A stretch of 35,356 bases of DNA from an uncultured Syntrophaceae bacterium (lineage in GTDB: Bacteria; Desulfobacterota; SM23-61): assembly GCA_964537885.1 (NCBI GenBank), contig CAZIDC010000001.1, positions 1 through 35,356 of the forward strand, written 5' to 3'. The position numbers and the translations under genes were made by a program. Under the pieces are notes generated by a model, which worked only from the letters and a program-made list of their open reading frames with translations, did not search any database and was not told where the DNA came from. Positions 921 to 35,299 of the stretch are shown here, piece by piece (position 1 is the stretch's first letter; the number at the start of each line of letters is the position of its first letter).

Positions 921-1049
921 TTCACCGCAGAGCACGCGGAGAACGCAGAGTTGAAAATGAAAAATTAAAACCCATGCGCTTGACGCTAACCGGTTATAGC
1001 CAATCTATCTATGTCCTTTCCCTGCGCCCTCAGCGCTCTCCGCGGTGAA
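921..1049. repeat. Inverted heptad-array element, family B (core CGCAGAG, termini TTCACCGC / GCGGTGAA)
   Basis: Left arm 921-950 is ttcaccgcagagcacgcggagaacgcagag. Right arm 1021-1049 is cctgcgccctcagcgctctccgcggtgaa. The centre is AT-rich. The element lies between the NuoF::GltD stop (1059) and the fdhA start (901). Confidence 0.85.
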
Positions 1050-1058
1050 ATAATGTTT

Positions 1059-4000
1059 TTAACGTTCCAAGTCGCACCGCAAACAGCGCTTCGCTTCGCG
1101 GACCGCCGTCTCTTCATCGAACCCCAGATTCACTTCTTCAAAAGTGCAGACCCGGCGGTCGACCGCCATCGCGGTCATTCTGGCCCGCGGTTTTACCGCC
1201 TCAGCTTCGGCTCCCTCTTCCCCGGTTTTGGGCACACTGGCCCGCAGCAGGGCTTGGTAAACCCGGTCTTGATAGAGGTCTTTCCCCCGCAAGTACCGAT
1301 CGATGGAAAGGGCCGCGCGATACCCGCTGGCCATGGCCTCCACGATCGTCGAGGGGCCGGTGACCACGTCACCGCCGGCAAAGACGCCGGGAATATGCAC
1401 AGCCAGGGTTTGCGGGTCCACCGCGAGGGTCGAGGCCTTGGTCGTCTTGAAGCCATCGTTCTGGGGAAGGCAGGACAAATCAGGGACATAACCGATGGCT
1501 GGGATAACCCCGTCCACCTCCATAAAAAATTCCGAGCCTTTAACCGGGACCGGGCGGCGTCTTCCGCTGGTATCGTAGGCTCCAAGTTCCATGCGCTGGC
1601 ATTCCAGGCCTTTGACCCTGCCGTTCTCCGTGATCACCCGGGTAGGAGCCATGAGGTAAAGAATCCTGATCTTCTCATGCTCGGCCTCCTCGATCTCTTC
1701 ATCATTAGCCGGCATCTCCTCCCGCGTTCGGCGGTAAATGATCGAAACCTCCTGCGCGCCCAAGCGCAGAGCCGTGCGGGCGGCGTCGATCGCCACGTTC
1801 CCCCCGCCGATGACCGCCACTTTCTTGCCCGCTTCCATTTTTTCGCCCAAATTTACCCGGCGCAAAAAATCGACTCCTGGCAAGACTCCCTGAGCATCTT
1901 CCCCGGGAATATTCATCTTCTGATTCAAATGGGCACCCATGGCTAAGAACACCGCCTTGTATCCCTGCCGGAAAAGGTCATCGATCGTAAAGTCCCGGCC
2001 AAGGGCTTTCCCGGTATTGATTTCCACGTTATGCTGGCAGATGAAGCGGATGTCATTCTCCAAAATCTCCCGGGGCAGCCGGTAATCCGGGATACCCACG
2101 GCGAGCATACCTCCGGCCACCGGCAGGGCTTCGAATATCGTAACCGGGTATCCCCGCCGCCCTAAATGATAAGCCGCATTCAATCCCGCCGGCCCGGCCC
2201 CCACCACAGCCACCCTTTCTGCTTTGGGCTTTTCCAGCAAAGTGGGAGGGGCCATTTTGCCCTGTTTACGTTCCCAATCAGCGGCAAATCTTTTCAGCGA
2301 CGAAATAGCGATGGGCTCATCGATCTCTCCCCGCTTGCACATGCCCTCGCAGGGGTGATTGCACACCCTCCCGCAAATTCCGGCCAAAGGCATGGTTAGC
2401 CGGATGAGGCTCAGAGCCTCCTCGTACCTCTCTTCGGAAATCAGGGCCGTGTAACCCACGGCATCGCAGCGCACCGGGCAGGTGTTTTCACAAGGGGCAA
2501 AGACCAGGGCTTCACAGGAGCCGGCCGGACAGTATTTATCCCGGATATGGGCTTCATACTCATTCCGGAAATGGTGAATGGTCGAGAGCACGGGGTTGGG
2601 ACAGGTCTGCCCCAGGCCACAAAGGGCGGAATCTTTTATAATTTGCCCGATTTCCAGGAGGAGTTCGATGTCTCCCTCCCGGCCTTGCCCTTTGGTTATG
2701 CGCGTCAGAATCTCCAGCATGCGTTTCGTGCCAATGCGGCAGGGAACGCATTTACCGCAGGATTCGTCCTGGGTGAAGTTCAGGAAGAAACGGGCAATAT
2801 CCACCATGCAGGTTTTTTCATCCATGACGATCATGCCGCCCGATCCCATCATCGAGCCAGCCTGGGTCAGGGATTCGTAGTCAATCGGCAGGTCCAGATA
2901 TTGAGAAGGCAGACATCCCCCTGAAGGTCCTCCCATCTGAGCTGCCTTGAAGCCACGGCCCCGGGGAATACCTCCGCCGATTTGATAGATGACCTCCCGC
3001 AGGGTTGTCCCCATGGGTACTTCCACCAGACCCGTGTTGTTGATCTTTCCAGTCAGGGAGAAAATCTTCGTGCCCTTGCTCCCCGCAGTTCCAATGGCCG
3101 CATAGGCCGCCGAACCTCCCAGGATGATGGAGCGGATGTTGGCATAAGTCTCCACGTTATTGATATTCGTGGGCTTACCCCAAAGACCTGCGACCGCTGG
3201 AAACGGCGGGCGCGCCCGGGGCATCCCCCTCTTGCCCTCGATGGAGGCCAAAAGAGCCGTCTCTTCTCCGCAAACGAAGGCCCCCGCTCCTTCTTTGATC
3301 TTGGCGTGGAAGCTGAATTCGGAGCCCAGAATGTTCTCCCCGATGAGGCCCAGCTTTTCGGCCTGATCGATGGCCATCTTTAGGTGCTGAACGGCCAAGG
3401 GGTATTCGGCCCGGACATATAAATAGCCGCTCTGAGAGCCGATGGCGTAAGCCGCGATGAGCATCCCCTCCAGGACCAGATGGGGATTTCCCTCCAGCAC
3501 GCTCCGGTCCATGAAAGCCCCGGGATCCCCTTCGTCAGCGTTGCAGACGATATACTTCACGTCCCCGGCCGAACCTCGGGTGAAGCGCCATTTCCTCCCA
3601 GTGGGGAACCCGGCCCCCCCTCTTCCGCGCAGCCCAGATTTTTCCACTTCGTCGATAACCTGTTCCGGCGTCATGGAGAAAAGGGCTTTGCTCAAGGCCG
3701 AATAACCCCCCCGGGCAAGGTAATCCCTGATCTCCGTCGGATCGATGCGGCCATTATCGCTGAAGACCGAGCGCATCTGGCCCTTATAAAAGGGGACATC
3801 ATGATCATAGACGACCACTTGACCGGTGGCGGGATCCGTGTAAAGCAGTCTCTGCACCAGCCGCCCACCAATGATGGTTTCCGAAACAACCTCCGCTATA
3901 TCTCCTAAGGCTACCTGTTGATAGAAAATTTCCTTGGGCTGGATGACGACCACGGGCCCCCGCTCGCAGAATCCGTGGCAACCCGTGCGCATTACATCCA

Positions 4001-4205
4001 CATTCCCCTCGAGGCCTTGCTTCCGAATTTCCTCGATAAAGGCCAAGCGAACCTCTTCGCCCCCCCAAGCCCGGCACCCCGTCCCGCCGCATATGGTCAC
4101 ACAGGTTTTATCAGGATCCCGCCCCTCAAGTATGGTTTCCCGGAGCGCGGTCAAGTCCTGCGCGGACTTCAGCTTCCCTTTCAACTTTTCTCCCCCTTCA
4201 GGCAT
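1059..4205 (-). CDS. Fusion protein. The N-terminus has a thioredoxin-like 2Fe-2S domain plus a NuoF/HndC-like NADH-FMN-4Fe4S module. The C-terminus has a GltD/NfnB-like NAD(P)H:FAD oxidoreductase module.
   Basis: 1048-aa ORF. The NuoF half carries CGGTGCRAWG, GRGGAGFPTGRKW and ESCGKCVPCRIG. The GltD-like half carries GICGRVCNHPCEGMC, VAVVGAGPAGLNAAYHL and VAVIGGGNVAIDAART. Its ATG at 4205 overlaps the upstream nuoE-like stop by 8 nt. Confidence 0.9.
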   Translation of the reverse strand: MPEGGEKLKGKLKSAQDLTALRETILEGRDPDKTCVTICGGTGCRAWGGEEVRLAFIEEIRKQGLEGNVDVMRTGCHGFCERGPVVVIQPKEIFYQQVALGDIAEVVSETIIGGRLVQRLLYTDPATGQVVVYDHDVPFYKGQMRSVFSDNGRIDPTEIRDYLARGGYSALSKALFSMTPEQVIDEVEKSGLRGRGGAGFPTGRKWRFTRGSAGDVKYIVCNADEGDPGAFMDRSVLEGNPHLVLEGMLIAAYAIGSQSGYLYVRAEYPLAVQHLKMAIDQAEKLGLIGENILGSEFSFHAKIKEGAGAFVCGEETALLASIEGKRGMPRARPPFPAVAGLWGKPTNINNVETYANIRSIILGGSAAYAAIGTAGSKGTKIFSLTGKINNTGLVEVPMGTTLREVIYQIGGGIPRGRGFKAAQMGGPSGGCLPSQYLDLPIDYESLTQAGSMMGSGGMIVMDEKTCMVDIARFFLNFTQDESCGKCVPCRIGTKRMLEILTRITKGQGREGDIELLLEIGQIIKDSALCGLGQTCPNPVLSTIHHFRNEYEAHIRDKYCPAGSCEALVFAPCENTCPVRCDAVGYTALISEERYEEALSLIRLTMPLAGICGRVCNHPCEGMCKRGEIDEPIAISSLKRFAADWERKQGKMAPPTLLEKPKAERVAVVGAGPAGLNAAYHLGRRGYPVTIFEALPVAGGMLAVGIPDYRLPREILENDIRFICQHNVEINTGKALGRDFTIDDLFRQGYKAVFLAMGAHLNQKMNIPGEDAQGVLPGVDFLRRVNLGEKMEAGKKVAVIGGGNVAIDAARTALRLGAQEVSIIYRRTREEMPANDEEIEEAEHEKIRILYLMAPTRVITENGRVKGLECQRMELGAYDTSGRRRPVPVKGSEFFMEVDGVIPAIGYVPDLSCLPQNDGFKTTKASTLAVDPQTLAVHIPGVFAGGDVVTGPSTIVEAMASGYRAALSIDRYLRGKDLYQDRVYQALLRASVPKTGEEGAEAEAVKPRARMTAMAVDRRVCTFEEVNLGFDEETAVREAKRCLRCDLER

Positions 4206-4662: not shown

Positions 4663-4680
4663 CTTTCCTCCTTAAGAACA

Positions 4681-4768
4681 GCAATCAGCTGTCAGCGGTC
4701 AGCTTTCAGCAAAAAAATAATATGCCCATAGATTTTTTGGCGATCGCTGAATGCTGATTGCTGATCGC
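4681..4768. repeat. Inverted heptad-array element, family A (core TCAGC / GCTGA)
   Basis: Left arm is gcaaTCAGCtgTCAGCggTCAGCttTCAGC followed by an A7 run. Right arm follows a T6 run and reads gGCGATCGCTGAatGCTGAttGCTGAtcgc. It is followed by T7, which abuts the acsE stop. Confidence 0.9.
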
Positions 4769-4774
4769 TTTTTT

Positions 4775-5587: not shown

Positions 5588-5598
5588 GCCTTCAGCCC

Positions 5599-6376: not shown

Positions 6377-6435
6377 GGGCGATAGGCAATGGGCGATAAA
6401 TTCTCCCTTTTCCCTATTGCCTCTGGCCTATCGCC
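6377..6435. repeat. Inverted heptad-array element, family F (core GGCGATA / GGCAATn)
   Basis: Left arm is gGGCGATAGGCAATGGGCGATA. Right arm is ccctattgcctctggcctatcgcc, whose reverse complement is GGCGATAGGCCAGAGGCAATAGGG. The right arm covers the DUF3786 stop codon. Confidence 0.8.
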
Positions 6436-7054
6436 TGTTTTTTATTAATTTCCACACCACCGTCTCCGCCAGGATGACGATGTCTTCCACCGGCAAATAT
6501 TCGCTTACCGAAGCGTCAAAGAGAAAGTTGCCATCGGCCGGGAACTCTTCATCTCCCCTCCATAAAATCAGGCCAAGGGGGACAAAAGGAAACGCCGGGA
6601 CTTTGATCCCGACATCTCCGAAACCGAGAGGTTCTCCCCCCAATTCTTCAGCCGCAGACTTCAAGGCATCCGGATTTCCCCCAAAAAAATTTACCAAAGG
6701 CCCTTGGCAGCGTTTCAGGAAAACGGGATGATAAAAAGCCCCCCCGGGAACTTCGGCGAAAGATACCCATTGCCCAGCCGCAGGGGCTCCGGCGGCCTTT
6801 GTCAAATAATGAAGAACCAGAATTTCTTCCCGGAGAGGAATCGGCCCCTGCCCGTTCTCGGGAGCAATCGATCCGCTGGGGAAGGAAATTAAAATTTCAT
6901 GCCCTAAATACTTCAGCGCAACTCGGGATTCCCCGCCGGGCCCCGGCTCATACCTTCCTCCTCCGCGGGCAGCCCGGTCCCGTAAGTCCGCTTTCGCGAG
7001 ACCCTCCACCGCCATCTGCCGGGCCAACTGGTAATTTTCCTGTTTCGGCAACAT
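6428..7054 (-). CDS. Conserved hypothetical protein, probably the DUF3786 family that accompanies acs clusters
   Basis: 208-aa ORF with protein-like composition, co-directional inside the acs block. The family assignment is from memory of DUF3786 proteins, not from a search. There is no obvious Shine-Dalgarno before ATG 7054. Its last two codons and stop lie inside a repeat arm. Confidence 0.6.
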   Translation of the reverse strand: MLPKQENYQLARQMAVEGLAKADLRDRAARGGGRYEPGPGGESRVALKYLGHEILISFPSGSIAPENGQGPIPLREEILVLHYLTKAAGAPAAGQWVSFAEVPGGAFYHPVFLKRCQGPLVNFFGGNPDALKSAAEELGGEPLGFGDVGIKVPAFPFVPLGLILWRGDEEFPADGNFLFDASVSEYLPVEDIVILAETVVWKLIKNRR

Positions 7055-7058
7055 AAAA

Positions 7059-7164
7059 AGCTATCAGCTTTCAGCCGTCAGCTTTTAGCTAAAACAAAAG
7101 CAAACTATAAGTCTTAATTGCTTTGGTCTCTGCTGATTGCTAATCGCTGACCGCTGATGGCTAT
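7059..7164. repeat. Inverted heptad-array element, family A
   Basis: Left arm is agctaTCAGCttTCAGCcgTCAGCttttagc. Right arm is tGCTGAttGCTAAtcGCTGAccGCTGAtggct. The element ends 3 nt before the TAA stop of the 7167-8048 gene. Confidence 0.9.
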
Positions 7165-8048: not shown

Positions 8049-8064
8049 CTCTTTCCTCCTTTAA

Positions 8065-8160
8065 AAGCAGCATACAGCAACCAGCGATCGGCAATCAGCC
8101 CAAATAAGAAAGATTATTTAATTGCTTAAGCTGAAAGCTGATTGCTGAAAGCTGACCGCT
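8065..8160. repeat. Inverted heptad-array element, family A (left arm more degenerate, CAGC core)
   Basis: Left arm is aagcagcatacagcaaccagcgatcggcaatcagcc. Right arm is ttgcttaaGCTGAaaGCTGAttGCTGAaaGCTGAccgct. Confidence 0.85.
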
Positions 8161-9517: not shown

Positions 9518-9537
9518 ATCTCACTCCTTTTCTTAAA

Positions 9538-9620
9538 GCGATCAGCAGTCAGCTATCAGCTCTCAGCGAAATTAAAAATTTATTTCTTGCTGATCGCTGA
9601 CTGCTGATGGCTGATTGCTG
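9538..9620. repeat. Inverted heptad-array element, family A
   Basis: Left arm is gcgaTCAGCagTCAGCtaTCAGCtcTCAGCgaaa. Right arm is tttcttGCTGAtcGCTGActGCTGAtgGCTGAttgctg. It is followed by T7, which overlaps the acsB TGA. Confidence 0.9.
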
Positions 9621-9626
9621 TTTTTT

Positions 9627-14902: not shown

Positions 14903-15078
14903 AGCTCCCTCCCTGAAAGACAGTGTTTGTTATTCGTATCAGTGGCTAAATAATGCCTTTTTCTCCAGACTCTTGGTCAATGATCCTCCCCCTTTCTGAA
15001 AAAGATTAGTGTAAAGTGTTGAGCGTCAAATTTTTTAACAGATTTTTATTTCCAAATATCGGCCTATATCCTATTTTC

Positions 15079-15848: not shown

Positions 15849-15914
15849 AAGTGTGAAAGTGTTAGTGTGAGTTTAAAAAAATATTACTGACACTGACACT
15901 CACACTAATCACTG
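15849..15914. repeat. Inverted short-period array element, family D (core AGTGT / ACACT, period 6-7)
   Basis: Left arm is aagtgtgaaagtgttagtgtgagt. Right arm is actgacactgacactcacactaatcactg. The RACo stop codon lies inside the right arm. Confidence 0.8.
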
Positions 15915-17878: not shown

Positions 17879-17909
17879 ACGCTCTGCGCCGTGCGCTATG
17901 CGTTCTGGC
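17879..17909. repeat. Solo (single-arm) heptad array, family C
   Basis: ACGCTCT GCGCCGT GCGCTAT GCGTTCT, preceded by T7. I found no inverted partner in the 44-nt metF-RACo spacer. Confidence 0.7.
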
Positions 17910-19500: not shown

Positions 19501-19518
19501 CTCAAACTCCTCCTAAAA

Positions 19519-19617
19519 ACGCATAGAGCATAGCGCATGGCGCATAGCGTTTAAAACTAAAAAGCTATGCTCTTTGTTCTTCTTTACGCAATGCGCTATG
19601 CGCTATGCGCTCTGCGT
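19519..19617. repeat. Inverted heptad-array element, family C (core GCGCTAT / ATAGCGC)
   Basis: The 32-nt arms are acgcatagagcatagcgcatggcgcatagcgt and acgcaatgcgctatgcgctatgcgctctgcgt. By my count 28 of 32 positions are complementary. The right arm lies inside the mvhD ORF. Confidence 0.9.
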
Positions 19618-20026
19618 ATTTTTTGCTCGGGCTGGGCCCCAGTTGGCGGATCTTTTCAGTCATCTCTCGGGCCACTTCTGCAAAGCGCGGTCCCATGGCT
19701 GCGGACATGTTATACATCTCCAGCCGGTCTCCACCAATCCCGGCATCCTCCAGGATGCGCTTGGCCATAGCCACCCGTTTCTTGGCCCGCAGGTTGCCGG
19801 TGAGGAAGTGGCAGTCGCCCTCCAGGCAACCGGCGACATAAACGCCGTCGGCCCCTTTTTCAAACGCTTCCAGCAGAAAACGGACGTCGATCTTGCCCGT
19901 GCAGGGAATCCGCACGATGCGGATGTTCGCCGGATACTGCAAACGCATGGTTCCGGCAAGATCCGCGGCCGTGTAAGCGCAAAAATGGCAACAAAAAGCG
20001 ATGATCGTCGGCTCGAATTTTTCCAT
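19565..20026 (-). CDS. mvhD: MvhD-like 2Fe-2S electron-transfer subunit
   Basis: CCHFCAY ... CTGK ... GCLEGDCHF. The ATG at 20026 shares one nt with the hdrL stop (TGATG). The last ~20 codons are encoded by a repeat arm. Confidence 0.88.
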   Translation of the reverse strand: MEKFEPTIIAFCCHFCAYTAADLAGTMRLQYPANIRIVRIPCTGKIDVRFLLEAFEKGADGVYVAGCLEGDCHFLTGNLRAKKRVAMAKRILEDAGIGGDRLEMYNMSAAMGPRFAEVAREMTEKIRQLGPSPSKKYAERIAHSALRKEEQRA

Positions 20027-23000
20027 CAAGCGGCCTCCCCTTTCAGCGCATCGGCCGGAATATCAAAAAGAACATCACACTTGGCCATGATCTGCTCATC
20101 GGTGAAATGTTGGAGTGTAATCGCTTTCCCCGGGCATTCCGCGGCACAGATGCCGCAGCCATGGCACTTGGCGATTTCGATCTCGGCTACGCCGTCGGCG
20201 TTGATCACGGGAACGTTGTAAGGACAAGCGCGCACGCAGGTCAGGCAGGCGGCACACTTTTCCGGGTCCACGACCGAGACCACCCCGCCTACGTAGATCT
20301 GGTCCTTGGCCAGGACCGTGCAGGCCCGGGATACAGCGGCCAACGCCTGGGAGATACTCTCCTCGACCATTTTCGGCGAGTGGGCCACCCCGCAGAGGTA
20401 GATGCCCTCGGAAGCAAAGTCCACGGGCCTGAGCTTCATGTGAGCTTCCAGGAAAAAGCCGTCGGCGGTTCGGGGCACCTTGAGCATGCTGGCCAGTTTC
20501 GCGGTGTCCGCGGCCACGGTAGCCGCGGATAAAATCAGAAGGTCGGGAGCAAAAGAAATGTTTTCCCGCAGGACGGGATTGTACAAGAAGACCTCCAATT
20601 TTCCGTCCTGGATCCGAACCTCAGGTTTTTTCTCCTCTTCATACCGCAGGAAGAGCACGCCGGCCTTACGCGCCCGGGCGTAATGTTCCTCCAACATGCT
20701 GTACATCCGCATATCCCGGTATAGGATGACCACCCGCGCTTTGGGGTTCAGGGCCTTGATCGTCAAGGCGTTCTTTACGGCCTCAGCGCAACACACCCGG
20801 CTGCAATAAGGCCGCTCTTCATTCCGCGACCCGACGCATTGGATCATGACCACTTCTTTCAAATCGCCAGCCTTTTTCCCATCGGTGGCCATGAGCCTCT
20901 CCAGTTCCAACTGGGTTAAAATTCTGCTGTCCTCTCCGTAGAGGTATTCTTTGGGTTTGAGCTCTTCCCCCCCGGTGGCCACGATGGTAACGCCATGTTC
21001 CAGCTCCCGGGGAAGCATCTTCGCCCCGACCATCAGGCTGGTTTTAAAGTTGCCCACGTAACCCGAAAAATCAGTGACGACGGCATTGGTGAAAACCTGG
21101 ATCTGGGGATGCCGGGTCACTCGGGTGATCATTTCTTTTAGGTATTGGGGCACGTCTTTCCCGTCCAGCGTTCGGTAAAGATGGCGCAGATTGCCGCCCA
21201 GCTCCCCTTCCTTCTCCACCAAGAAAGTTTCAAACCCTTGCTCGGCCAACCCGAGAGCCGCAGTCATCCCGGATAATCCTCCTCCAATCACTAAGCCTTT
21301 CTTAATCACCCCTTTGGTCAACTCTTCCAGGGGGCGGATCAGACGGGCGTTGGCCACGGCCATGCGCACCAAGTCCCGGGCTTTCGAGGTTGCTTCTTCT
21401 TTCTGGTTCATATGGACCCAGGAACACTGATCCCGGATGTTGGCCATTTCGAAGAGGTATTGGTTCAGACTGGCTTCCCGGATCGTTTCCCGAAAGAGAG
21501 GCTCATGGGTGCGCGGGGAGCAGGAAGCCACCACCACCCGGTTCAACTTGTGTTCCTCGATGGCTTTCTTGATCTTTTCTTGCGTATCCTGGGAGCAGGT
21601 GTATAGATTTTCTTCCGCAAAGACCACGTTCCCCAGAGTGGCCGCATATTCTTTGACGGAGGGGACGTCGACTACTCCGGCGATGTTATTCCCGCAGCGG
21701 CAGACAAAGACCCCGATCCTTGGGGATTCTTCCTTCACATCTTTTTGTTCCGGGTATTCCTTACGAATGACCATCGTTCCCCGGACCTCTGAGAGAATCT
21801 CCGAGGCGGCGGCGGCGGCTCCGCTGGCCTGGGCTACTGTCTCGGGAATGTCCTTCGGGCCCTGGAAAACCCCGCAAACGAAAACCCCCGGTTGGGAAGT
21901 GGCCAGCGGCGCAAAAATATCGGTCTTGGCAAAGCCATAGGCGTCAAGGTCGATTCCCAACTTTTTCCCCAGCTCTTTGGTGGAGGCCGAAGGAGTCATC
22001 CCCACCGAGAGGACCACTAAGTCGAATTCCTCTTCCTGAATCTCCCCCGCTTCATTTACGTAGGAGATCAAAAGGTTTTTGGTCTGCGGGTCCTCTGCCA
22101 CCCGGGAAATCATGCAGCGCACGTAGCGCACGCCGTATTCTTTTTTAGCCCGTTCGTAGTAGGCATCGAACCCTTTGCCATAGGCCCGGAGGTCGATGAA
22201 AAAGATCGTCGGCTCAATTTCCTTGTTATGCTCCTTGGCAATGATCGCTTCCTTGGTCGCGTACATGCAGCAAACCGCCGAGCAATATTTATGGTCCTGG
22301 TCGCGGCTGCCCACGCATTGTAAAAAAGCCAACTTCCGCGGTGTTTTCCCGTCCGAGGGGCGATTCACGTGCCCCATCGTCGGGCCGGAGGCCGAAAGCA
22401 ATCGCTCGAACTGCAGAGCGTTTACTACGTTGGGGTACCGTCCCCAGCCATACTCCGGCGACAATTGGGCGTTGTAAACTTCGTAGCCGGGCGCCAGGAT
22501 CAGGGAACCCACCGGCACTTCTTCCAGCCGTTCCACCATGTTGTGATCAATCGCTCCCAAGCCACATTTGTAATAACAGCTCAAACACTCCGAGCATACT
22601 CCGCAGGCCAGGCACCGGGCCGCCTCGGCCTGGGCTTCTTCATCGGTATACCCTAAATTCACCTCAGCAAACGATCGGGTTCGTTGGACGACCCCCATGG
22701 TTTGCACGTGTACCCGGGGAGTTGCGCGGATTTCGCCCAAGGCCATCCGCTCCTTGATTTCCTCCATGGTCAACTTGACAACGGGCAACTCCGGTTTGGC
22801 CTCGGGCTCCAATTCGCCACCCCGCAGATAGCGCTGGATGCTGGCTGCCGCCTTATGCCCTGCGGCCACCGCTTCGATGACGAAAGCGGTCCCGCTGATG
22901 GCATCCCCGGCAGCAAACACGCCGGGGCGGGTGGTGGCGTAGGTGTTGGGATTGACGGCTACGGTTTCCTGGCGGGTTACGCCTACTCCGGTGCTTTCAG

Positions 23001-24516
23001 GGATAAACTCCAGACCGGCCCGCTGGCCCACCGAAAAGATCACCGTTTCGCAGGGGACCACGTGCTCTGAGCCGGGCACAGGGACGGGCCGGCGGCGGCC
23101 GCTCCCGTCCGTCTCCCCCAGCTCCATGCGGATGAAGCGGATTCCCGCCACGCGGCCATTCCCGTCGCCGATGATCTCGGCCGGGTTGGACAGGAAGTGA
23201 AATTGCACGCCTTCTTCTTCGGCGTGTTGAATTTCCAGCGAGTCAGCCGTCGCTTCCGCGGGCGACCGGCGATAGTGGACATGCACTTCTTTGCCAAACC
23301 GGACCGCCGTGCGCGCGCAGTCCATGGCCACATCGCCCGCGCCGATCACGATCACGCGCTGGCCCAGTTCCGGAGGGTTGCCCAAGCGCACGTCCCGGAG
23401 AAAGGGAGTGTTGAGTAGCACCCCTTTCAGGTCCGCGCCGGGGATCGGTAAGGGGATCCCCTTATGCGCCCCCACGGCAATGAGCACCGCGTCGTACCCT
23501 TGGATAAATAAATCCTCGATATGGACCACCGGACTGTTCAATCGCAGGTCCACCCCCAGGTCGACGATGTCGGCCACTTCGCGCTCGATGATCTCCGCCG
23601 GCAAGCGGTACTCGGGCACGCCGACGCGCAACATACCCCCCGGAACCGGCAGCCCCTCAAATACCGCAACCGGATAACCCAGCCGCACTAAGTCCTGGGC
23701 CGCCGTCAGTCCACATGGCCCTGCTCCGATAATGGCCACACGCTTGTCTTGGGTTGGCTGAATGGGCGTAACCGGGGAACGGGGCTGGGCGTAAACTTTA
23801 TCGGTGACAAAACGTTTGAGCGCGCGGATGTCGAGGGGTTGATCGACCAGGTTGCGGTTGCAGGCGTCTTCGCAGCGATGGTTACAAATGCGCCCGCAGA
23901 TCCCGGGAAAAGGATTGTCTTCTTTGATCACCCGCAGGGCGTCCTCGTAACGGCCTTCGCGGATGAGGGCAATATAGCCTTGGGCGCGCTGGCCGGACGG
24001 GCAAGCATCCCGGCAGGGAGCGATGCCTCTTTTTTCAATGGCAAAAGCATTGGGTACAGCCTGGGGGTAGAGTTTATAAGCGGCCCGCTGCTTGGCCATC
24101 CCTTCATCGAATCGCCCCGGGATGATGACCGGACACACCTGGGCGCATTCACTGCAGCCCGTGCATTTGCTCACGTCGATATAGCGCGGCTTGCGGCGGA
24201 CTGTAACCATGAAGTTGCCAGCCTGGCCATCCACTTTCATGACTTCGGTATCGGTCATCAACTGGATGTTTAGGTGCCGCCCCGTTTCCACTAACTTGGG
24301 GCTGATGGTACACATCGAGCAATCGTTGGTGGGAAAGGTCTTATCCAACTGGGCCATCCGCCCGCCAATGGCCGTGGTTTCTTCCACTAAGTAAACCTTA
24401 AAGCCGGAATTGGCCAGGTCTAAGGCGGCTTGCATTCCACCTACGCCGCCGCCGACCACCATCACAGATCCAGTTTTTCCGCTTTTTGTCAGTTGAGGGT
24501 CTTTCACTTTCTCCAT
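20026..24516 (-). CDS. hdrA: Giant HdrA-type flavoprotein (HdrL-like). An HdrA-like FAD module is interrupted by a GltD/NfnB-like NAD(P)H module and followed by a second complete HdrA module.
   Basis: 1496-aa uninterrupted ORF. VMVVGGGVGGMQAALDLA ... CSMC ... CTGCSECAQVCP. Next comes GICGRICNHRCEDAC and VAIIGAGPCGLTAAQDL (GltD-like). The HdrA sequence then resumes (CVGSRDQ ... CSAVCC). The second module begins with RIGVFVCRCGNNIAG ... GLVIGGGLSGMTAALGLAEQG ... CVGSRNE ... CSRVCC, ending in terminal 2x4Fe-4S motifs. Confidence 0.9.
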   Translation of the reverse strand: MEKVKDPQLTKSGKTGSVMVVGGGVGGMQAALDLANSGFKVYLVEETTAIGGRMAQLDKTFPTNDCSMCTISPKLVETGRHLNIQLMTDTEVMKVDGQAGNFMVTVRRKPRYIDVSKCTGCSECAQVCPVIIPGRFDEGMAKQRAAYKLYPQAVPNAFAIEKRGIAPCRDACPSGQRAQGYIALIREGRYEDALRVIKEDNPFPGICGRICNHRCEDACNRNLVDQPLDIRALKRFVTDKVYAQPRSPVTPIQPTQDKRVAIIGAGPCGLTAAQDLVRLGYPVAVFEGLPVPGGMLRVGVPEYRLPAEIIEREVADIVDLGVDLRLNSPVVHIEDLFIQGYDAVLIAVGAHKGIPLPIPGADLKGVLLNTPFLRDVRLGNPPELGQRVIVIGAGDVAMDCARTAVRFGKEVHVHYRRSPAEATADSLEIQHAEEEGVQFHFLSNPAEIIGDGNGRVAGIRFIRMELGETDGSGRRRPVPVPGSEHVVPCETVIFSVGQRAGLEFIPESTGVGVTRQETVAVNPNTYATTRPGVFAAGDAISGTAFVIEAVAAGHKAAASIQRYLRGGELEPEAKPELPVVKLTMEEIKERMALGEIRATPRVHVQTMGVVQRTRSFAEVNLGYTDEEAQAEAARCLACGVCSECLSCYYKCGLGAIDHNMVERLEEVPVGSLILAPGYEVYNAQLSPEYGWGRYPNVVNALQFERLLSASGPTMGHVNRPSDGKTPRKLAFLQCVGSRDQDHKYCSAVCCMYATKEAIIAKEHNKEIEPTIFFIDLRAYGKGFDAYYERAKKEYGVRYVRCMISRVAEDPQTKNLLISYVNEAGEIQEEEFDLVVLSVGMTPSASTKELGKKLGIDLDAYGFAKTDIFAPLATSQPGVFVCGVFQGPKDIPETVAQASGAAAAASEILSEVRGTMVIRKEYPEQKDVKEESPRIGVFVCRCGNNIAGVVDVPSVKEYAATLGNVVFAEENLYTCSQDTQEKIKKAIEEHKLNRVVVASCSPRTHEPLFRETIREASLNQYLFEMANIRDQCSWVHMNQKEEATSKARDLVRMAVANARLIRPLEELTKGVIKKGLVIGGGLSGMTAALGLAEQGFETFLVEKEGELGGNLRHLYRTLDGKDVPQYLKEMITRVTRHPQIQVFTNAVVTDFSGYVGNFKTSLMVGAKMLPRELEHGVTIVATGGEELKPKEYLYGEDSRILTQLELERLMATDGKKAGDLKEVVMIQCVGSRNEERPYCSRVCCAEAVKNALTIKALNPKARVVILYRDMRMYSMLEEHYARARKAGVLFLRYEEEKKPEVRIQDGKLEVFLYNPVLRENISFAPDLLILSAATVAADTAKLASMLKVPRTADGFFLEAHMKLRPVDFASEGIYLCGVAHSPKMVEESISQALAAVSRACTVLAKDQIYVGGVVSVVDPEKCAACLTCVRACPYNVPVINADGVAEIEIAKCHGCGICAAECPGKAITLQHFTDEQIMAKCDVLFDIPADALKGEAA

Positions 24517-25923: not shown

Positions 25924-26011
25924 TTTGCTTTCTGCCAAAGGTCTGTTCTCCTTTATTAAATTTAATAGGACGCAGATTTCCGCAGATAACAACAGTTAAG
26001 TACGTTGTTTT

Positions 26012-26057
26012 AATAGGGGATAGCAGTCTCTGCCCCGAAATCCTGCATTCCCCTATT
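26012..26057. other. Non-heptad hairpin in the folD-hdrC spacer
   Basis: AATAGGGGA ... TCCCCTATT is a 9-bp perfect stem, extended by gcag/ctgc. No adjacent U-run on either strand. Confidence 0.5.
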
Positions 26058-26126
26058 AAAAAGATACCCCTCGGCGAATTTCACCGCTATGAGGTATATC
26101 ATTCCTAAAAGAAGCTAAGCACCGTG

Positions 26127-26145
26127 CCGCAGAACGTTCTTGCGG
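26127..26145. other. Near-perfect palindrome immediately after the folD stop
   Basis: CCGCA-GAACGTTC-tTGCGG. The inner GAACGTTC is a perfect 8-bp palindrome. It starts 2 nt from the folD TGA. Confidence 0.45.
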
Positions 26146-26147
26146 TT

Positions 26148-27064: not shown

Positions 27065-27180
27065 ATTCACCGCAGAGCGCGCCGAGGTCGCAGAGAATTT
27101 CTATAATTAAAAAACCGAACGTTGGCTTTTTATAATTTTGTTCATTTACCTCAGCGTTCTCAGCGATCTCTGCGGTGAAT
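27065..27180. repeat. Inverted heptad-array element, family B
   Basis: Left arm is attcaccgcagagcgcgccgaggtcgcagagaa. Right arm is acctcagcgttctcagcgatctctgcggtgaat. The outer 13 bp are perfectly complementary. The termini are the same as in the 921-1049 element. Confidence 0.88.
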
Positions 27181-30768: not shown

Positions 30769-30835
30769 CCCCAGAATAATTCCCCCCGATCCATCAACGA
30801 GGCGATCACCGCCGCGGGCGCGATGGGCTTTGCGT

Positions 30836-32548
30836 TCAAGCCCCTTCGCGGTACGCTTTCTGGTATTCTGACCAGAGGAATTCTTTTTTGACCCCATGGT
30901 CGATAAAATCCCAGGGCAGGATTTCTTCCCAACCTCGCTCCCGGTAAACGTAAAAATCCGGGTTCACATCAACGGAACGATAGACCTGCGGCCAGTTCCA
31001 CCCAAGGCCGTGTCCAGTTAATAACAACTTTCCGACCCGTCGATCCCCCCGCGCCAAAAGGGCCTGCAAAAAAGCCCATTTCGGGAAATCGGCCGAGACC
31101 GAAAGGCCCTTCTCCCGCCGAAGCCCGTTTTTTATAGTTTTGATCTTTTCATTCAAGCTCCGCAGGTCCTCAAAAGGATGCCACTGGAAGGGCGTGGCCG
31201 GCTTGGGAACGAAAGAATTCAGGCTGAGAGTGATTCTTTCTATCCCCTTCCTCCCTCCGCTTGCTTTCCGGATGTGATGCCTGATTCTTTTGGCAAGGTC
31301 GACGATCCCCTTGACATCTTCCATCTTTTCCCAAGGCAGGCCGATCATAAAGTAGAGGCGGAGGTTTTGCACCCCGCGATCGGCCAGGATTTCCGCCGCC
31401 CGGAGGATTTCCTCCTCCGTGAACCCTTTGCGCACCACCCGGCGCATTCTCTCGGACCCTGCCTCCGGGGCCAGGGTGATCGTCTTCTGTCCGCTTTCCA
31501 AAACAAGGTCGGCCACTTCTGGCGTTAGGGAATCCACTCTGAGGGATGAGAAGGAGAGGGACCTGGGGGATTGGAGAATCCCCTGTCCGAGGGTGACCAG
31601 ATCAGGGTAGTCCGAGATTGCCGCGCCCACCAGCCCGACTTTTTCCGCCGGGCCAGCCCCCGCAAGGATTGCCTCCCTAAGGAGAGGGCCGTCCCGTACT
31701 CGATGAGGATAGTAGGTGAAACAACTGGCGCAGAACCGGCAGCCGCGCCGGCAGCCGCGGCTGAGTTCAAGCAAGAACATCCCCGAGAGTTCTGTATTCG
31801 GCGTTACCAGAACAGAAGTTGTGAGAGATTCATTCAGATTCTTTAGCCAGGCTCTCTTGACCCGCGACGGGAAGGCTCCCTGGGGAACAAACGAATCAAT
31901 CGTTCCATCCGCCCTGTAAGATACCTCATAAAACTGAGGAACGTAGATTCCTTCGATCTTCGCCAGCTCGGCCAACAGGGCCTCTCTATTCACCCTCTTG
32001 CCCCGGCCTTGCCGCAGGGCCTCCGTCAAGGCCGGCGCAACGACTTCGGCCTCCCCGATCACGAAGAGGTCTACAAAGTCGGCCAGCGGCTCGGGGTTCA
32101 TCAACACGGTGGCCCCGCCGGCAATGACTAAAGGATGGACCGCGGTCCGCTCCTTTTTGAGCATGGGAATCCTGGCCAATTCCATCATCTGGAGGAGGTG
32201 GGGATAATCATTCTCGTAGGAGATGGAAAAGGCCAGGACATCAAAGTGGCTGACCGGCCGCTGGGATTCCAGGACAAAGAGCGGGGTTCCTGTCCGGCGG
32301 TGCTCCTCGTAATCTTCAGGGTCCGGCAAAAAAACCCGTTGGCACACTATGCCCGGCTGCCCGTTGAAAAGCCGGTAAACCGCCTGGAACCCCAAGTTGG
32401 ACATCGCCGCGTAATACCGTTGAGGAAAAGCCAGAGCGATAAACAATTCTCCCCTGTGGTCGACCGCTTTGTTCTCCCCGCCCCCCAATAAAACTTTTCT
32501 CTCGGCGGCCAGGAGTTTTTTGGCTTTTTCAATCAGCTTGTTGGACAT
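30836..32548 (-). CDS. Radical SAM protein with an N-terminal B12-binding-like domain (function unknown)
   Basis: 570 aa. CxxxCxxC motif SRGCRRGCRFC. The N-terminal Rossmann-like segment precedes it. No clear Shine-Dalgarno. Confidence 0.85.
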   Translation of the reverse strand: MSNKLIEKAKKLLAAERKVLLGGGENKAVDHRGELFIALAFPQRYYAAMSNLGFQAVYRLFNGQPGIVCQRVFLPDPEDYEEHRRTGTPLFVLESQRPVSHFDVLAFSISYENDYPHLLQMMELARIPMLKKERTAVHPLVIAGGATVLMNPEPLADFVDLFVIGEAEVVAPALTEALRQGRGKRVNREALLAELAKIEGIYVPQFYEVSYRADGTIDSFVPQGAFPSRVKRAWLKNLNESLTTSVLVTPNTELSGMFLLELSRGCRRGCRFCASCFTYYPHRVRDGPLLREAILAGAGPAEKVGLVGAAISDYPDLVTLGQGILQSPRSLSFSSLRVDSLTPEVADLVLESGQKTITLAPEAGSERMRRVVRKGFTEEEILRAAEILADRGVQNLRLYFMIGLPWEKMEDVKGIVDLAKRIRHHIRKASGGRKGIERITLSLNSFVPKPATPFQWHPFEDLRSLNEKIKTIKNGLRREKGLSVSADFPKWAFLQALLARGDRRVGKLLLTGHGLGWNWPQVYRSVDVNPDFYVYRERGWEEILPWDFIDHGVKKEFLWSEYQKAYREGA

Positions 32549-32561
32549 GCTTGGCCAAAGA

Positions 32562-32648
32562 AGCCTTCAGCGTTCAGCGATCAGCTTTCAGCTAAAGAAA
32601 GATCATGTTTTTTTTAGCTTTCCGCTGATTGCTGACCGCTGATAGCTG
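32562..32648. repeat. Inverted heptad-array element, family A
   Basis: Left arm is agccTTCAGCgtTCAGCgaTCAGCttTCAGCta. Right arm is tagctttccGCTGAttGCTGAccGCTGAtagctg. It is followed by T5, which overlaps the ftsZ TGA. Confidence 0.9.
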
Positions 32649-32652
32649 TTTT

Positions 32653-33843
32653 TCAATCCGCCTGCTTCCTCAAGAAGGTAGGGATATCGTACTCATCTTC
32701 CCCCACGTGGGCCGGAAAACGGCCTTTATGAAACTTGGCCGGTTTTTCCTGAGCCTCAACGGTCTTCTCCTGGCGGATGAACGTGGGAATATCCCGGTTG
32801 CTTTCCCTGTGGGTAAAGCTGACGACGGTCTTTTCTTGTTCCAGGGCGGAGGCTGGAGATTCAAGCCGGCGCTCTTCCTCTTCCAGCGCTTTTCCGAATC
32901 CCGTGGCAATCACCGTGACCCGCATTTCCTCCCCCAGGTTTTCATCAATTACGGCCCCGAAGATGATGTTGGCATCATCGTGGGCTTCCTCCTGGATGAG
33001 TGAGGAGGCCTCGTTTACCTCGTAGAGGGTCAGGTCGGGCCCCCCCGAAACGTTGATCAAAATCCCCCGGGCTCCAGCGATGGTAATATCCTCCAGCAGA
33101 GGGCTGGAGATGGCCCGTTGGGCGGCTTCGATGGCCCGATTTTCCCCGCTCGCGCACCCTGTCCCCATCAGGGCCAATCCCATTTCCGCCATCACCGTCC
33201 GGACATCGGCGAAATCCAGGTTAATCAAGCCGTGGACCGTAATCAGGTCCGAAATTCCTTTGACGGCCTGGAGCAGGACCTCATCCGCTTTCCGGAACGT
33301 CTCCAGCAAGGGCATATCCCGGCCAGCAATGTTGAGCAATCTCTGATTGGGGATGGTGATCAGCGTGTCCACGCATTTACGAAGTTCTTTGAGCCCTTCT
33401 TCGGCCTGCTGCTGCCTTTTCTTGCCTTCGAAGAGAAACGGTTTGGTGACGACGGCTACCGTAAGCGCCCCCGCATCTTTAGCGATGGAAGCCAGAATCG
33501 GCGCCCCGCCCGTGCCCGTACCGCCACCCATCCCCGCCGTTATGAAGACCATATCGGCGCCACTTAGAATCTCCCGGATCCGGTCTTTGTCCTCCAGGAT
33601 GGCATTTTTCCCAATCTCGGGGTTGGCTCCGGCTCCCAGGCCTTTGGTCAGCTTGGCCCCTAATTGAATCTTGATGGGCGAACCGCAGTTGGCCAGAGCC
33701 TGGGCATCCGTGTTGGCCCCGATAAACTCTACCCCGCTCAAACTGGATTTAATCATGGTGTTAACGGCATTGCATCCCCCGCCCCCGATGCCCACCACTT
33801 TCAAATTGGCCCCTGAATTCCTGCTTTCTTCCAATTCAAACAT
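32653..33843 (-). CDS. ftsZ: Cell division protein FtsZ
   Basis: [13 protein letters not shown] and the tubulin signature [12 protein letters not shown]. The track start is a GTG at 33852. The ATG at 33843 sits 7 nt after GGAGGT. Confidence 0.95.
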
Positions 33844-33866
33844 TCCCCCCACCTCCCTTTTAAATT

Positions 33867-33943
33867 ATTGCGGACTGGCGATTGCGGATTTACGATTCTT
33901 TAATTTTTATTTGCTTTTCGTTCCGCATCCCGCATTCCGAAAT
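33867..33943. repeat. Inverted heptad-array element, family E (core ATTGCGG / CCGCAT)
   Basis: Left arm is ATTGCGG ACTGGCG ATTGCGG ATTTACG. Right arm is cgttccgcatcccgcattccgaaat. The element lies between the ftsA stop and the ftsZ Shine-Dalgarno. Confidence 0.85.
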
Positions 33944-33946
33944 CTT

Positions 33947-35182
33947 TTAGAAGAATTCGCTGAACCATTTTCTCATTCTCTGGCCCACCTTACCGAATAG
34001 ATTGCGGTCGCTGCTTTTAAAGCGGCCTTCGGCTCCGTGTCGTTTTCCATAGAGTACCAAACCGACGGCCGCAGCGTACATGGGATTATTGACTACATCC
34101 ACCAGGCCGCCCACCCCTGAAGGATACCCTCGACGAACCGGAAGGTTGAAAATCTGCTCGACCAATTCGGGCAGTCCTTCCAGAGAAGCAGTTCCTCCGG
34201 TGAGCACAACCCCCGACGGGATAAGGTTTTCGTACCCGGATTTGAGGATCTCGCGGTGGACGAGGGTGAAAATTTCTTCCATCCGGGGTTCAATGATCTC
34301 AGCCAGGATCTGCCGGGACAGAACCCTGGCTCTCCTCCCCCCCACGCTGGGAACTTCAATGGTTTCCTCCTTTTTCACCATCGAAGTCAGCGCGCACCCG
34401 TATTTGGTTTTGATCTTCTCCGATTCCACCAGGGGTGTTCTCAACCCCACCGCGATATCGTTGGTCAGGTGATTGCCCCCCAGGCCAAAAATAGCGGTCT
34501 GCCGGACCGCACCTTGCGAGAAAACGACCAGATCGGTTGTCCCGCCGCCAATGTCCACTAAGGCAACGCCGAGATCCTTTTCGTCCGGGATGAGCACCGC
34601 CTCACTGGCCGCTAACTGTTCCAGGACGATGTCACTCACCTCGAGATCTGTCCGGTTGCAGCACCGGATGATATTTTGGGCCGAGGTTACGGCCCCGGTA
34701 ACGATATGGACTTTCGCCTCTAAGCGAACCCCGGACATTCCCAGGGGCTCCATGATTCCGTCCTGTTCATCCACGATGAATTCCTGCGGGAGAACATGAA
34801 TGACTTCCCGGTCCATGGGAATGGCGACGGCCCGGGCGGCGTCTATGACCCGCTTTACATCGCTTTCCGAGACTTCTCGATTTTTAACGGCCACAATCCC
34901 GTGGCTGTTAAACCCCCGGATATGGCTTCCGGCAATCCCGCAATAAACGGCCGTAATCTCCGCTCCGGCCATCAGCTCCGCTTCCTCCACGGCTTTGCGG
35001 ATCGATTCTACCGTGGCGTCGATGTTGATAACCACGCCCTTGCGCAGCCCCTTCGAAGGGTGGGTTCCGATGCCCACGATATCCACGCCGGAATCGCTGA
35101 TTTCCCCCACAATGGCGCAGATTTTGGTGGTCCCAATATCCAGGCCGACGATGATGTTTTCTCTCTTCCCTTTTTTAACCAT
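33947..35182 (-). CDS. ftsA: Cell division protein FtsA
   Basis: GLDIGTTKICAIVGE and DIGGGTTD (actin-fold). The track start is a TTG at 35224. The ATG at 35182 (MVKKGK) gives the usual N-terminus. Confidence 0.93.
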   Translation of the reverse strand: MVKKGKRENIIVGLDIGTTKICAIVGEISDSGVDIVGIGTHPSKGLRKGVVINIDATVESIRKAVEEAELMAGAEITAVYCGIAGSHIRGFNSHGIVAVKNREVSESDVKRVIDAARAVAIPMDREVIHVLPQEFIVDEQDGIMEPLGMSGVRLEAKVHIVTGAVTSAQNIIRCCNRTDLEVSDIVLEQLAASEAVLIPDEKDLGVALVDIGGGTTDLVVFSQGAVRQTAIFGLGGNHLTNDIAVGLRTPLVESEKIKTKYGCALTSMVKKEETIEVPSVGGRRARVLSRQILAEIIEPRMEEIFTLVHREILKSGYENLIPSGVVLTGGTASLEGLPELVEQIFNLPVRRGYPSGVGGLVDVVNNPMYAAAVGLVLYGKRHGAEGRFKSSDRNLFGKVGQRMRKWFSEFF

Positions 35183-35228
35183 GGGGATTCCCCCTTCCCA
35201 AGGAACGATTCCCAAACAGCACAACAGG

Positions 35229-35299
35229 GTCCGTGTCAGTGTTTAGTGTCAGTAAAGACATTTTTTACTGACACGGACACTCACACTGATATTCACACT
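35229..35299. repeat. Inverted short-period array element, family D
   Basis: Left arm is gtccgtgtcagtgtttagtgtcagtaaa. Right arm is tttactgacacggacactcacactgatattcacact. The inner 11 bp (gtgtcagtaaa / tttactgacac) are perfect. Confidence 0.85.

Follow-up and report, generated by a model that had tools for sequence, protein, structure and literature searches.

The results of this analysis demonstrated that most of the longer gene junctions in a 35,356-nt stretch of DNA from an uncultured Syntrophaceae bacterium (GenBank assembly GCA_964537885.1, contig CAZIDC010000001.1; the whole stretch is referred to here as the window) are filled by palindromes whose two arms are tandem arrays of short units. 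The observation is real, well above chance and lineage-wide. On balance, these elements are probably dispersed non-coding palindromic repeats that act at the DNA level, with arms built of tandem 6-9 bp units, and are comparable to repetitive extragenic palindromes (REPs), bacterial interspersed mosaic elements (BIMEs), REP doublets forming hairpins (REPINs) or foldback elements. The observations behind this interpretation are the dispersal of families, conserved asymmetric ends, fixed polarity, slippage, cassette-like replacement, arms that mirror each other, strand symmetry and presence in a phage, together with the confinement of the elements to the short stretch from a stop codon to the ribosome-binding site (RBS) that follows it.

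The window was examined with a sliding test (21 comparisons, at least 16 matches), which found 10 period-7 arrays, all within spacers, against 0.2 in shuffled sequence. The other periods from 4 to 13 gave 0 to 2 arrays each, and period 14, a harmonic, gave 4. A strict paired detector, which demands three 5-mer cores and a reverse-complement partner no more than 170 nt away, returned five sites at period 7, 0 to 1 at other periods and none in 20 shuffles. Tandem Repeats Finder (TRF) called period 7 at 4685, 4742, 7059, 8128, 9537, 9587, 19520, 19587 and 32562, as well as period 9 at 27150 and period 6 at 15886. An element is present in about 13 of the approximately 17 spacers of 39 nt or longer; the acsA-to-acsB junction carries none. 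Folded as minus-strand RNA, the spacers form long hairpins (ΔG -19 to -63 kcal/mol, z -2.4 to -8.4). Hairpins begin 0-11 nt past the upstream stop and mostly end 12-29 nt ahead of the next start, leaving the Shine-Dalgarno sequence free, and two arrays overlap coding ends. Rfam at the gathering score gave 0 matches over the whole window on both strands. Because the same elements appear in independent NCBI, JGI, ENA and Logan assemblies, they are not assembly artefacts.

An earlier, sequence-only reading of the window had listed thirteen spacers with inverted arrays of heptamers. Twelve of the thirteen are indeed inverted pairs, far above chance, with centres of ca. 15-70 nt, and the site at 17879 has a single arm. 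The palindromes span 60-130 bp, with 3-5 tandem units of 6-9 bp in each arm. The unit sizes had to be revised in part: 921 and 27065 have 9-nt units, three per arm, 15849 and 35229 have units of ca. 6 nt, 6377 and 33867 have about three weak units, and the others are heptamers as described. At least six unit families (TCAGCnn, CGCAGAG plus two nucleotides, CGCATAG, CAGTGT, ATTGCGG and AGGCGAT) occur in the 35 kb, every one at gene junctions, and the TCAGCnn unit lies at five of them. The proposal of one geometry shared by many unrelated unit sequences was thus borne out.

The window was compared with 165 related loci (2.0 Mb in all), retrieved via AcsC from GTDB genomes, metagenomes and encoding contigs and numbered here with the prefix L; for each genome, up to 10 kb on either side of one operon was covered (ca. 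20 kb). By AcsC comparison, the closest genomes are uncultured deltaproteobacterial metagenome-assembled genomes. AcsC of L001 is 88% identical to that of the window, AcsC of L002 (Deltaproteobacteria bacterium SM23_61) 84% and that of L081, a 1.8-kb Logan contig, 97%; L082-L086 encode an identical AcsC protein. A single detector found 76 paired sites in 27 of the 166 sources, and the elements look like a property of the lineage. Confinement to gene junctions also held, since 68 of these 76 sites, like all 10 period-7 arrays of the window, are intergenic. The sources with several sites are the deltaproteobacterial relatives of the window, and Chloroflexi/Dehalococcoidia loci with the same operon have them rarely; a first scan of the GTDB loci found paired sites in none of the latter. 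In three other Desulfobacterota (L012, L016 and L044), the spacers are 14-34 nt long and hairpin-free.

The dominant period over the 76 sites was 7 in 39, 6 in 19, 9 in 13, 8 in 3 and 10 in 2, so the label heptamer is too narrow, and more than 15 unrelated cores coexist in one clade. A conserved 5-nt core with two variable positions is absolute for TCAGCnn and weak in the other families: among 55 period-7 arrays, two adjacent columns took up 63% of the departures from the unit consensus, where 55% was expected (197 observed, null 172.6, standard deviation 5.2). The arms had also been predicted to pair as a ladder of short helices separated by 2x2 internal loops. This ladder component is real, because the arm-to-arm mismatches of 35 period-7 hairpins from the window and relatives recur at distance 7 (35 pairs versus 9-19 at neighbouring distances). 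However, 70% of the variable-phase positions are Watson-Crick paired between the arms, as compared to 52% after permutation of the units (0 of 2,000 permutations reached the observed value). It follows that the two arms truly mirror each other and that the stem is nearly continuous in many cases.

Families recur at non-orthologous junctions across genomes, among them TCAGC, CAGTGT, CGCATAG, AGGYAAT, GTTCGGA and the CGCAGAG 9-mer. CAGTGT occupies five junctions in L001, and the family keeps a non-periodic asymmetric end, CACT[AC]ATCACTGT, in 13 sense copies at four distinct junctions and in one reversed copy, at window position 15850, so that it is found at five or more non-orthologous junctions. 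The CGCAGAG 9-mer family, with CACCGC termini, has two members in the window and others at non-orthologous sites in L002, L088 and L149, and their centres, of 60-400 nt, are unrelated. Shared families and asymmetric ends at non-orthologous junctions indicate dispersed families and not local accidents.

The occupants of orthologous junctions differ between relatives. At the acsB-to-acsC slot, the window and L095 carry a TCAGCnn ladder; L001, L081, L082-L084 and L089 carry a ladder of CAGTGT hexamers; L002 and L091 have GAGGYT/GGTTAA hexamers; L085, L086, L088, L093 and L149 have a plain GC-rich GTAG...CTAC palindrome; and L087 has a C-rich palindrome. The slot is occupied in 16 of 16 relatives, by five unrelated hairpin types. 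At the acsC-to-acsE2 slot, orthologous TCAGC elements are present in L002, L087, L090 and L093, L001, L081-L086 and L094 have CAGTGT ladders, and L088 has a REP-like palindrome. GTAG palindromes thus share junction slots with ladder elements in the relatives of the window.

This turnover reaches the strain level, where the flanking genes are 99.3-99.8% identical. The flanks of the acsB-to-acsC slot in L084 and L085 differ at 4 of 2,000 nt in acsB and at 10 of 1,353 nt in acsC, and the slot carries a 102-nt CAGTGT ladder in L084 versus a 60-nt GTAG...CTAC palindrome in L085, with sharp breakpoints (GAAAAA| and |AAAGGAG). Between L083 and L085, acsC has three differences in 1,353 nt (at 24, 171 and 1353), without a cluster of single-nucleotide polymorphisms by the junction. 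L085 and L086 have no difference in the 1,353 nt of acsC, yet their acsC-to-acsE2 spacers differ by an indel of 13 nt, or two units; arms elsewhere gain or lose blocks of 6 nt and 18 nt. Unit indels and whole-element swaps in near-identical strains therefore show that slippage and whole-element replacement are both active at this level. Fixed operon slots in which families, REP-like palindromes included, are swapped between strains of more than 99% identity constitute an unusually clean natural experiment, and the origin of the elements becomes a testable question through this turnover between strains, the exchange with GTAG palindromes and the carriage by a phage described below.

Some observations concern unusual members. 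Two near-identical TCAGC hairpins lie in tandem in the acsC-to-acsE2 spacer of L002 (11354-11555), which is a recent whole-element duplication. Classical-looking REP palindromes (GTAGGGGCG…CGCCCCTAC) occur at L085:2298-2357, in L086, L088, L093 and L149, and at the acsD-to-acsA and acsA-to-acsB junctions of L002. Long members of 220-400 nt with tandem-unit termini were found at L037:15054-15412, L037:1924-2143, L002:3043-3329, the cooC2-to-acsD junction of L088 and a spacer of L089, those of L002 and L037 measuring 220-360 nt, and one arm among them has 18 TAATGAC units. Other palindromes nested in their centres suggest insertion of element into element; differing families are nested or clustered inside single spacers in L088, L089, L083 and L001. 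Unpaired arrays stand head to tail at L001:4112-4224 (AGGCAAT x6, ACACGRA x5 and AACACTY x3), and the acsE1-to-nuoE spacer of L082 and L083 also has unpaired arrays. Elsewhere, arrays face a non-complementary family (GGGTTAC… followed by AGCTGAT…).

The TCAGC family extends beyond this clade. The pattern TCAGCNN x4 occurs in at least 120 IMG/VR contigs. In the 120 independent contigs among the matches listed, neighbouring arrays stood in the order TCAGC then GCTGA 45 times and in the reverse order three times. A bare requirement for pairing would not lead to this fixed polarity. As controls, a scrambled core, GTCCANN x4, was found in 104 viral contigs and ACGTCNN x4 in 18, mostly unpaired; tandem heptamers are therefore general in environmental prokaryotic and viral DNA, and inverted pairing depends on the family. 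One IMG/VR contig, L255 (1-12560), is a siphovirus-like tailed phage whose proteins match PHROGs for a head-tail adaptor, Neck1, a tail terminator, a tail protein, a 1030-aa tape measure and DNA methyltransferases; the best matches of the tape measure are 40% identical across 20% of the protein. TCAGC/GCTGA arrays lie at most junctions of its structural module, some overlapping TGA stops and ATG starts. Carriage by this phage is a possible way for the elements to pass from lineage to lineage. In Pfam and PHROGs scans, no transposase appeared on the array-rich contigs L251 and L255.

The sequence-only reading had preferred selection on periodic structure, such as an RNA ladder hairpin. Selected RNA elements would be intercistronic stem-loops that punctuate the mRNA by blocking 3'-5' exonucleases, attenuating read-through or coupling termination to initiation, and any folding sequence would suffice. 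Several features are consistent with such a role: every close relative has a hairpin, of five unrelated kinds, in the acsB-to-acsC and acsC-to-acsE2 junctions; the placement of the foot just past the stop spares the Shine-Dalgarno sequence; beyond the 3' arm there is often a U-rich stretch, and ahead of the 5' arm an A-run; the folds are much more stable than those of shuffled sequences; and in L255, as at window 7059, the 3' arm adjoins the ATG without a Shine-Dalgarno sequence, as expected for hairpin-mediated coupling. Transitions in a stem give G-U pairs on one strand and A-C mismatches on the other, and an excess of G-U would therefore be expected under selection on the sense RNA. We found no such signature. 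There were 215 G-U pairs in the sense folds and 183 in the antisense ones, stability favoured the sense strand at 32 sites and the antisense strand at 30 (Wilcoxon p = 0.72), and A-C and G-T arm mismatches numbered 42 and 40. Strand-symmetric variation of this kind is as expected of a DNA-level process. Five orthologous TCAGC elements did not show covariation (covariation term +2.96, a penalty; 2 of 30 pairs doubly changed), in an alignment made ambiguous by the repeats. The CAGTGT copy at 15850 is reversed, the window acsA-to-acsB junction is empty, and the same operon has hairpin-free spacers of 14-34 nt in Dehalococcoidia and in the three other Desulfobacterota. Moreover, neither the 45 versus 3 polarity among the matches listed nor the shared asymmetric ends are needed for folding. 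Selection on RNA as the reason for the elements thus appears rather unlikely, and the alternative that had been named beside it, a common generating mechanism, fits the data better.

Small DNA-binding proteins are known that read units of this size: 7-bp heptads are bound by the ribbon-helix-helix omega repressor and 8-bp metboxes by MetJ. The arms could accordingly be periodic binding arrays on double-stranded DNA, with a small dimer on each 7-9 bp unit or a protein of the integration host factor (IHF)/HU type, serving local chromosome organisation or insulation. The strict short period, the conserved core beside less constrained positions, the 3-5 contiguous units with two-fold symmetry around an AT-rich centre and the strand-symmetric variation would all suit such arrays, and binding is the sole published interpretation of the Geobacter elements (PMC2700814). 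However, more than 15 unrelated cores in one clade, at least six of them in 35 kb, would need many specific proteins; the sites lie within operons and not at promoters, and also in the structural module of a phage; variable positions mirrored between arms are unnecessary for independent binding sites; and exchanging families at one fixed slot between near-identical strains would rewire regulation haphazardly. We regard this explanation as distinctly unlikely. Neutral by-products of on-the-spot slippage of a chance heptamer plus local inverted duplication, with neither dispersal nor function, are the least probable origin: arbitrary-core arrays are common (the 104 and 18 viral contigs of the control cores), unit-number polymorphism reveals active slippage and a heptamer excess in prokaryotes has been ascribed to polymerase slippage, as cited in PMC4692102, but one unit recurring at 5 of the 13 sites within 35 kb, and families shared by non-orthologous junctions of different genomes, cannot be independent births, and the conserved non-periodic ends, the fixed arm polarity and whole-element replacement with sharp breakpoints also speak against it.

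For dispersed palindromic repeats, the following course of events is proposed. Units are gained and lost by slippage, as the indels between strains show. The arms would be held as mirror images either because one is copied from the other (quasipalindrome template switching) or because purifying selection acts on pairing. The pattern across junctions shows that whole elements of a family are copied to, or exchanged at, new sites, and a mobilising activity or short-tract recombination may be what moves them. They persist almost solely between a stop and the next RBS or start, where a self-folding insert is least harmful to a polycistronic operon, presumably tolerated since the stop and the start are brought back together. 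Once transcribed, the elements would form long imperfect intercistronic stem-loops, which may secondarily serve as decay barriers, weak terminators or coupling devices; this would be a consequence and not the reason for their existence. The stems are long and interrupted with centres of 15-70 nt, and a consensus terminator scan with a loop limit of 3-8 nt is blind to such hairpins. The 5' flanks are A-rich (an A-run) and the 3' flanks T-rich (ca. 40% T at +2 to +6), which prolongs the palindrome. Several elements lie inside operons for subunits of one complex.

Several points weigh against this interpretation. No transposase-like open reading frame (ORF) was present among the scanned proteins within the ca. 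20 kb covered per genome, a scan in which REP-associated tyrosine transposases (RAYTs) and IS200/IS605 were not sought. A search for composite or autonomous elements, defined as array partners 400-4,000 nt apart that enclose an ORF, found almost only neighbours of one family on either side of ordinary operon genes. A test at 63 elements revealed no target-site duplication, their flanking direct repeats having the same length distribution as those of shuffled flank pairs, and no clean empty site was found in close relatives. The loops of family members cannot be aligned, which is unusual for recently transposed copies and fits BIME-like assembly or rapid decay better than classical transposition of MITEs (miniature transposable elements with inverted repeats). 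Short-tract homologous recombination between strains could yield the cassette-like swaps without transposition, and, as unpaired arrays and neighbouring arrays of mixed families exist, the basic module may be the array rather than the palindrome. Finally, the occupancy of the acsB-to-acsC slot in 16 of 16 relatives and the presence of elements in a size-constrained phage hint at some selective value of the hairpin.

Paired inverted arrays at gene junctions had been thought undescribed. In fact, the kind has been described twice, in the genome of Geobacter metallireducens (Aklujkar et al. 2009, PMC2700814) and in Xanthomonas (Rehm et al. 2015, PMC4692102), so that it is on record, though without a known function. 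The elements are thus no new class of RNA. The lineage, the unit families and the hexamer and nonamer variants are new; so are the turnover between strains, the swapping with GTAG palindromes and the occurrence in a phage. Short tandem heptamers are over-represented in many prokaryotic genomes, and paired inverted arrays have been listed in genome papers on these two occasions.

Classes 1-3 of the 'global regulator binding sites' of G. metallireducens are paired opposite-strand tandem arrays with a variable spacer. Class 1 comprises 24 pairs with four GTTGCTYN octamers per array, class 2 has 21 pairs with three TCTCCGTS[Y] units and class 3 has 8 pairs with five MTYCTGA heptamers, and a class 3 pair lies between proB and proA (PMC2700814). 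The class 3 alignment shows ATTCTGA/CTCCTGA arrays with listed coordinates ca. 70-115 nt apart. As in the window, each Geobacter array has 3-5 contiguous units of 7-9 nt (two window sites have ca. 6 nt), the opposite-strand partner lies tens of bases away (12 of 13 window sites are paired), several classes coexist in one genome (three, versus at least six in 35 kb here), and the sites are intergenic or intercistronic in a deltaproteobacterial host. The consensus units differ from those of the window and the resemblance is partial: class 3 read on the other strand is TCAGRAK, near TCAGCnn, and the GGTTGCT units of L002, L093 and L094 resemble class 1. Hexamer families and interchange with GTAG palindromes, seen here, are unreported in that paper. 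Its authors proposed binding of IHF/HU-type proteins, without a test, whereas the evidence presented here points to mobile or dispersed palindromes.

In Xanthomonas, GGGAATC heptamers form 70-75 convergent array pairs able to form stem-loops; the length and sequence of the arrays vary among close species, which mostly agree in type (single or inverted pair), and transcription of the repeats was reported (PMC4692102). Intergenic tandem heptamers, inverted pairs included, are thus common to Xanthomonas and the window. Xanthomonas has one G-rich family, studied as a G-quadruplex former, whereas the window has many families and no G-tract units.

The short tandemly repeated repetitive (STRR) sequences likewise form tandem heptanucleotide arrays in non-coding DNA. 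Their cyanobacterial units are CCCCAGT, TTGGTCA and CAACAGT, none of which equals a window unit, and the closest genomes to the window are deltaproteobacterial, not cyanobacterial. TAACTGA arrays in Beggiatoaceae, cyanobacteria and Bacteroidetes are intergenic, lie near start codons and have 2-6 copies, and their patchy phylogenetic distribution suggests horizontal spread (MacGregor 2015, PMC4679880). The Maribeggiatoa genome has 169 direct sets and one inverted; almost all arrays of the STRR and Beggiatoaceae heptamers are direct, whereas in the window the inverted pair is the rule and the units differ.

The elements had also been held distinct from REP/BIME. REPs carry a GTAG tag and a short palindrome (stem 5-13 bp, loop 2-20) and form inverted dimers at a spacing of 20-100 bp (Di Nocera et al. 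2013, PMC3733652), and REP/BIME/REPIN elements, which occur with RAYT transposases, are not expected to have target-site duplications (PMC3733652; Bertels and Rainey 2011, PMC3116915). These palindromes are numerous in intergenic DNA, for the most part downstream of ORFs where the neighbouring genes are co-directional. The ladders share with them the inverted dimers, the extragenic position, the many families per genome and the strain-level variation typical of mobile DNA. They are not members, in that their arms are direct tandem arrays that are not palindromic themselves and end in A[CT]AG... rather than GTAG. Nevertheless, kinship is indicated, because a ladder and a GTAG...CTAC palindrome interchange at one slot; true GTAG palindromes occur in six relatives (L002, L085, L086, L088, L093 and L149).

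Foldback and Galileo transposons of eukaryotes have inverted termini of internal tandem repeats and are much longer than the ladder elements. Foldback elements and MITEs are resembled in that the ladders are non-coding and 60-400 bp long, below the 500 bp of MITEs, with terminal inverted repeats of tandem units, a variable centre, families and nesting. The ladders differ in that neither a target-site duplication nor an autonomous partner was identified. A CRISPR array was rejected, as it had been before, since the units are 6-9 nt, contiguous and inverted in the second half, as compared to 24-48-nt repeats with unique spacers of similar size. A reading as Chi-like recombination hotspots was dropped, because a species has one Chi sequence and not 15 families.

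As a tentative extension, which we consider possible rather than probable, the ladders, Geobacter classes 1-3, the Xanthomonas pairs and the phage TCAGC elements might be one widespread, unrecognised class of miniature mobile DNA with dedicated machinery, phages as shuttles between phyla and a co-opted role as the standard punctuation of cistrons in the lineages that carry it. Such machinery could be a transposase specific for hairpin DNA that reads the units, or slippage plus template switching at stalled forks.

The sites of the window are collected in Table 1.

Table 1. Tandem-unit elements of the window, with minus-strand RNA folds (free energy in kcal/mol and z-score)
Position	Element	Location	Detection	Fold	z
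921..1047	CGCAGAG+2 9-nt units, three per arm; TTCACCGC termini; centre ca. 70 nt	between nuoF/gltD-like gene and preceding ORF		-63.1	-5.6
4676..4772	TCAGCnn x4 / nnGCTGA x4 palindrome	acsE1-nuoE gap	TRF, both array detectors	-40.7	-5.4
6377..6430	AGGCGAT-type heptamers, ca. 3 weak units per arm				
7059..7162	TCAGCnn / nnGCTGA palindrome	DUF3786 gene-acsE2 gap		-41.6	-6.3
8062..8160	degenerate TCAGCnn / nnGCTGA palindrome	acsE2-acsC gap			
9537..9624	TCAGCnn x4-5 / nnGCTGA x5 palindrome	acsC-acsB gap		-42.9	-8.4
15850..15908	CAGTGT/ACTGAC element, ca. 6-nt units	acsV-cooC2 gap	TRF period 6		
17879..17905	unpaired four-unit array CGCTCTG CGCCGTG CGCTATG CGTTCTG	metF-acsV gap			
19515..19621	CGCATAG / CTATGCG heptamer palindrome	metV-mvhD gap		-59.5	-6.6
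27065..27180	second CGCAGAG 9-nt-unit element; TTCACCGC termini	folD-fhs gap	TRF period 9	-53.6	-6.4
32561..32647	TCAGCnn / nnGCTGA palindrome	B12/radical-SAM gene-ftsZ gap		-43.6	-7.5
33867..33944	ATTGCGG / CCGCAT heptamer palindrome, weak, 3-4 units	ftsZ-ftsA gap		-20.5	-3.2
35229..35300	CAGTGT-like palindrome, ca. 6-nt units	upstream of ftsA		-31.0	-4.1

The ladder of 5-bp helices and 2x2 loops is visible in the fold of the element at 4676. The arms of the elements at 921 and 27065 align, and their centres are unrelated; their family also occurs at L002:3043-3329 and in the cooC2-to-acsD spacers of L002, L088 and L149, and L089 has a related CACAGAG variant. The asymmetric end of the 15850 element, CACTAATCACTGT, is antisense here and sense in the 13 other copies. 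The array at 17879 has no inverted partner in its 44-nt spacer and forms a small local hairpin only; the metF-acsV junction of L002 has a paired GCGC-type element. An ATGCGGA family similar to the units at 33867 was found in L076 and L058. The AGGCGAT family forms or adjoins the end of the DUF3786 gene at its junction with cooC1 in the window, L001 (13035), L002 (13138) and L088, and is far more stable at this junction, in four genomes, than the families at other junctions.

Elements can extend or end ORFs and mislead gene callers. The DUF3786 gene has its TAG stop within the first AGGCGAT/AGGTAAT unit (6428-6437). The mvhD ORF runs 16-17 codons into one CGCATAG arm, ending in KKYAERIAHSALRKEEQRA at a TAG in the centre (19565-19640, minus strand); the VhuD profile on its product stops at residue 136 of 154, and L001 has a different tail there. 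The many short inverted and direct repeats can also break metagenome assemblies within key metabolic operons.

The minus strand carries all long ORFs of the window, and the GC content is 0.52-0.63. NCBIfam named a Wood-Ljungdahl cluster among its proteins, comprising a nuoE-like gene, a nuoF/gltD-like gene, two acsE-like methyltransferases, cooC, a DUF3786 gene, acsC, acsB, acsA, acsD, a second cooC, acsV, metF, metV, mvhD, a 1496-aa gltD/hdrA fusion, hdrB, hdrC, folD and fhs; small ORFs and then a B12/radical-SAM gene, ftsZ and ftsA lie beyond fhs. Two of the products are unusually large fusion proteins, a 1048-aa NuoF-like/GltD-like protein (1059-4205) and the 1496-aa GltD-like/HdrA-like protein (20026-24516). 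The hdrC-folD spacer (25993-26147) holds a long non-periodic palindrome (TTTTTAATAGGGGAATGCAGG…CTGCTATCCCCTATTAAAA), which is not a tandem-unit element. In the cooC2-acsD gap of L082 (4224-4436), L001, L002, L087-L089 and L149, there is a conserved 70-aa ORF without a known family (LAKNLEEKKLFSGEKVKV…WYGSEKRKNPA). At 14903-15078, the window has a 13-codon remnant of this ORF (LTKSLEKKALFSH, followed by a stop) and a degenerate AACACT array.

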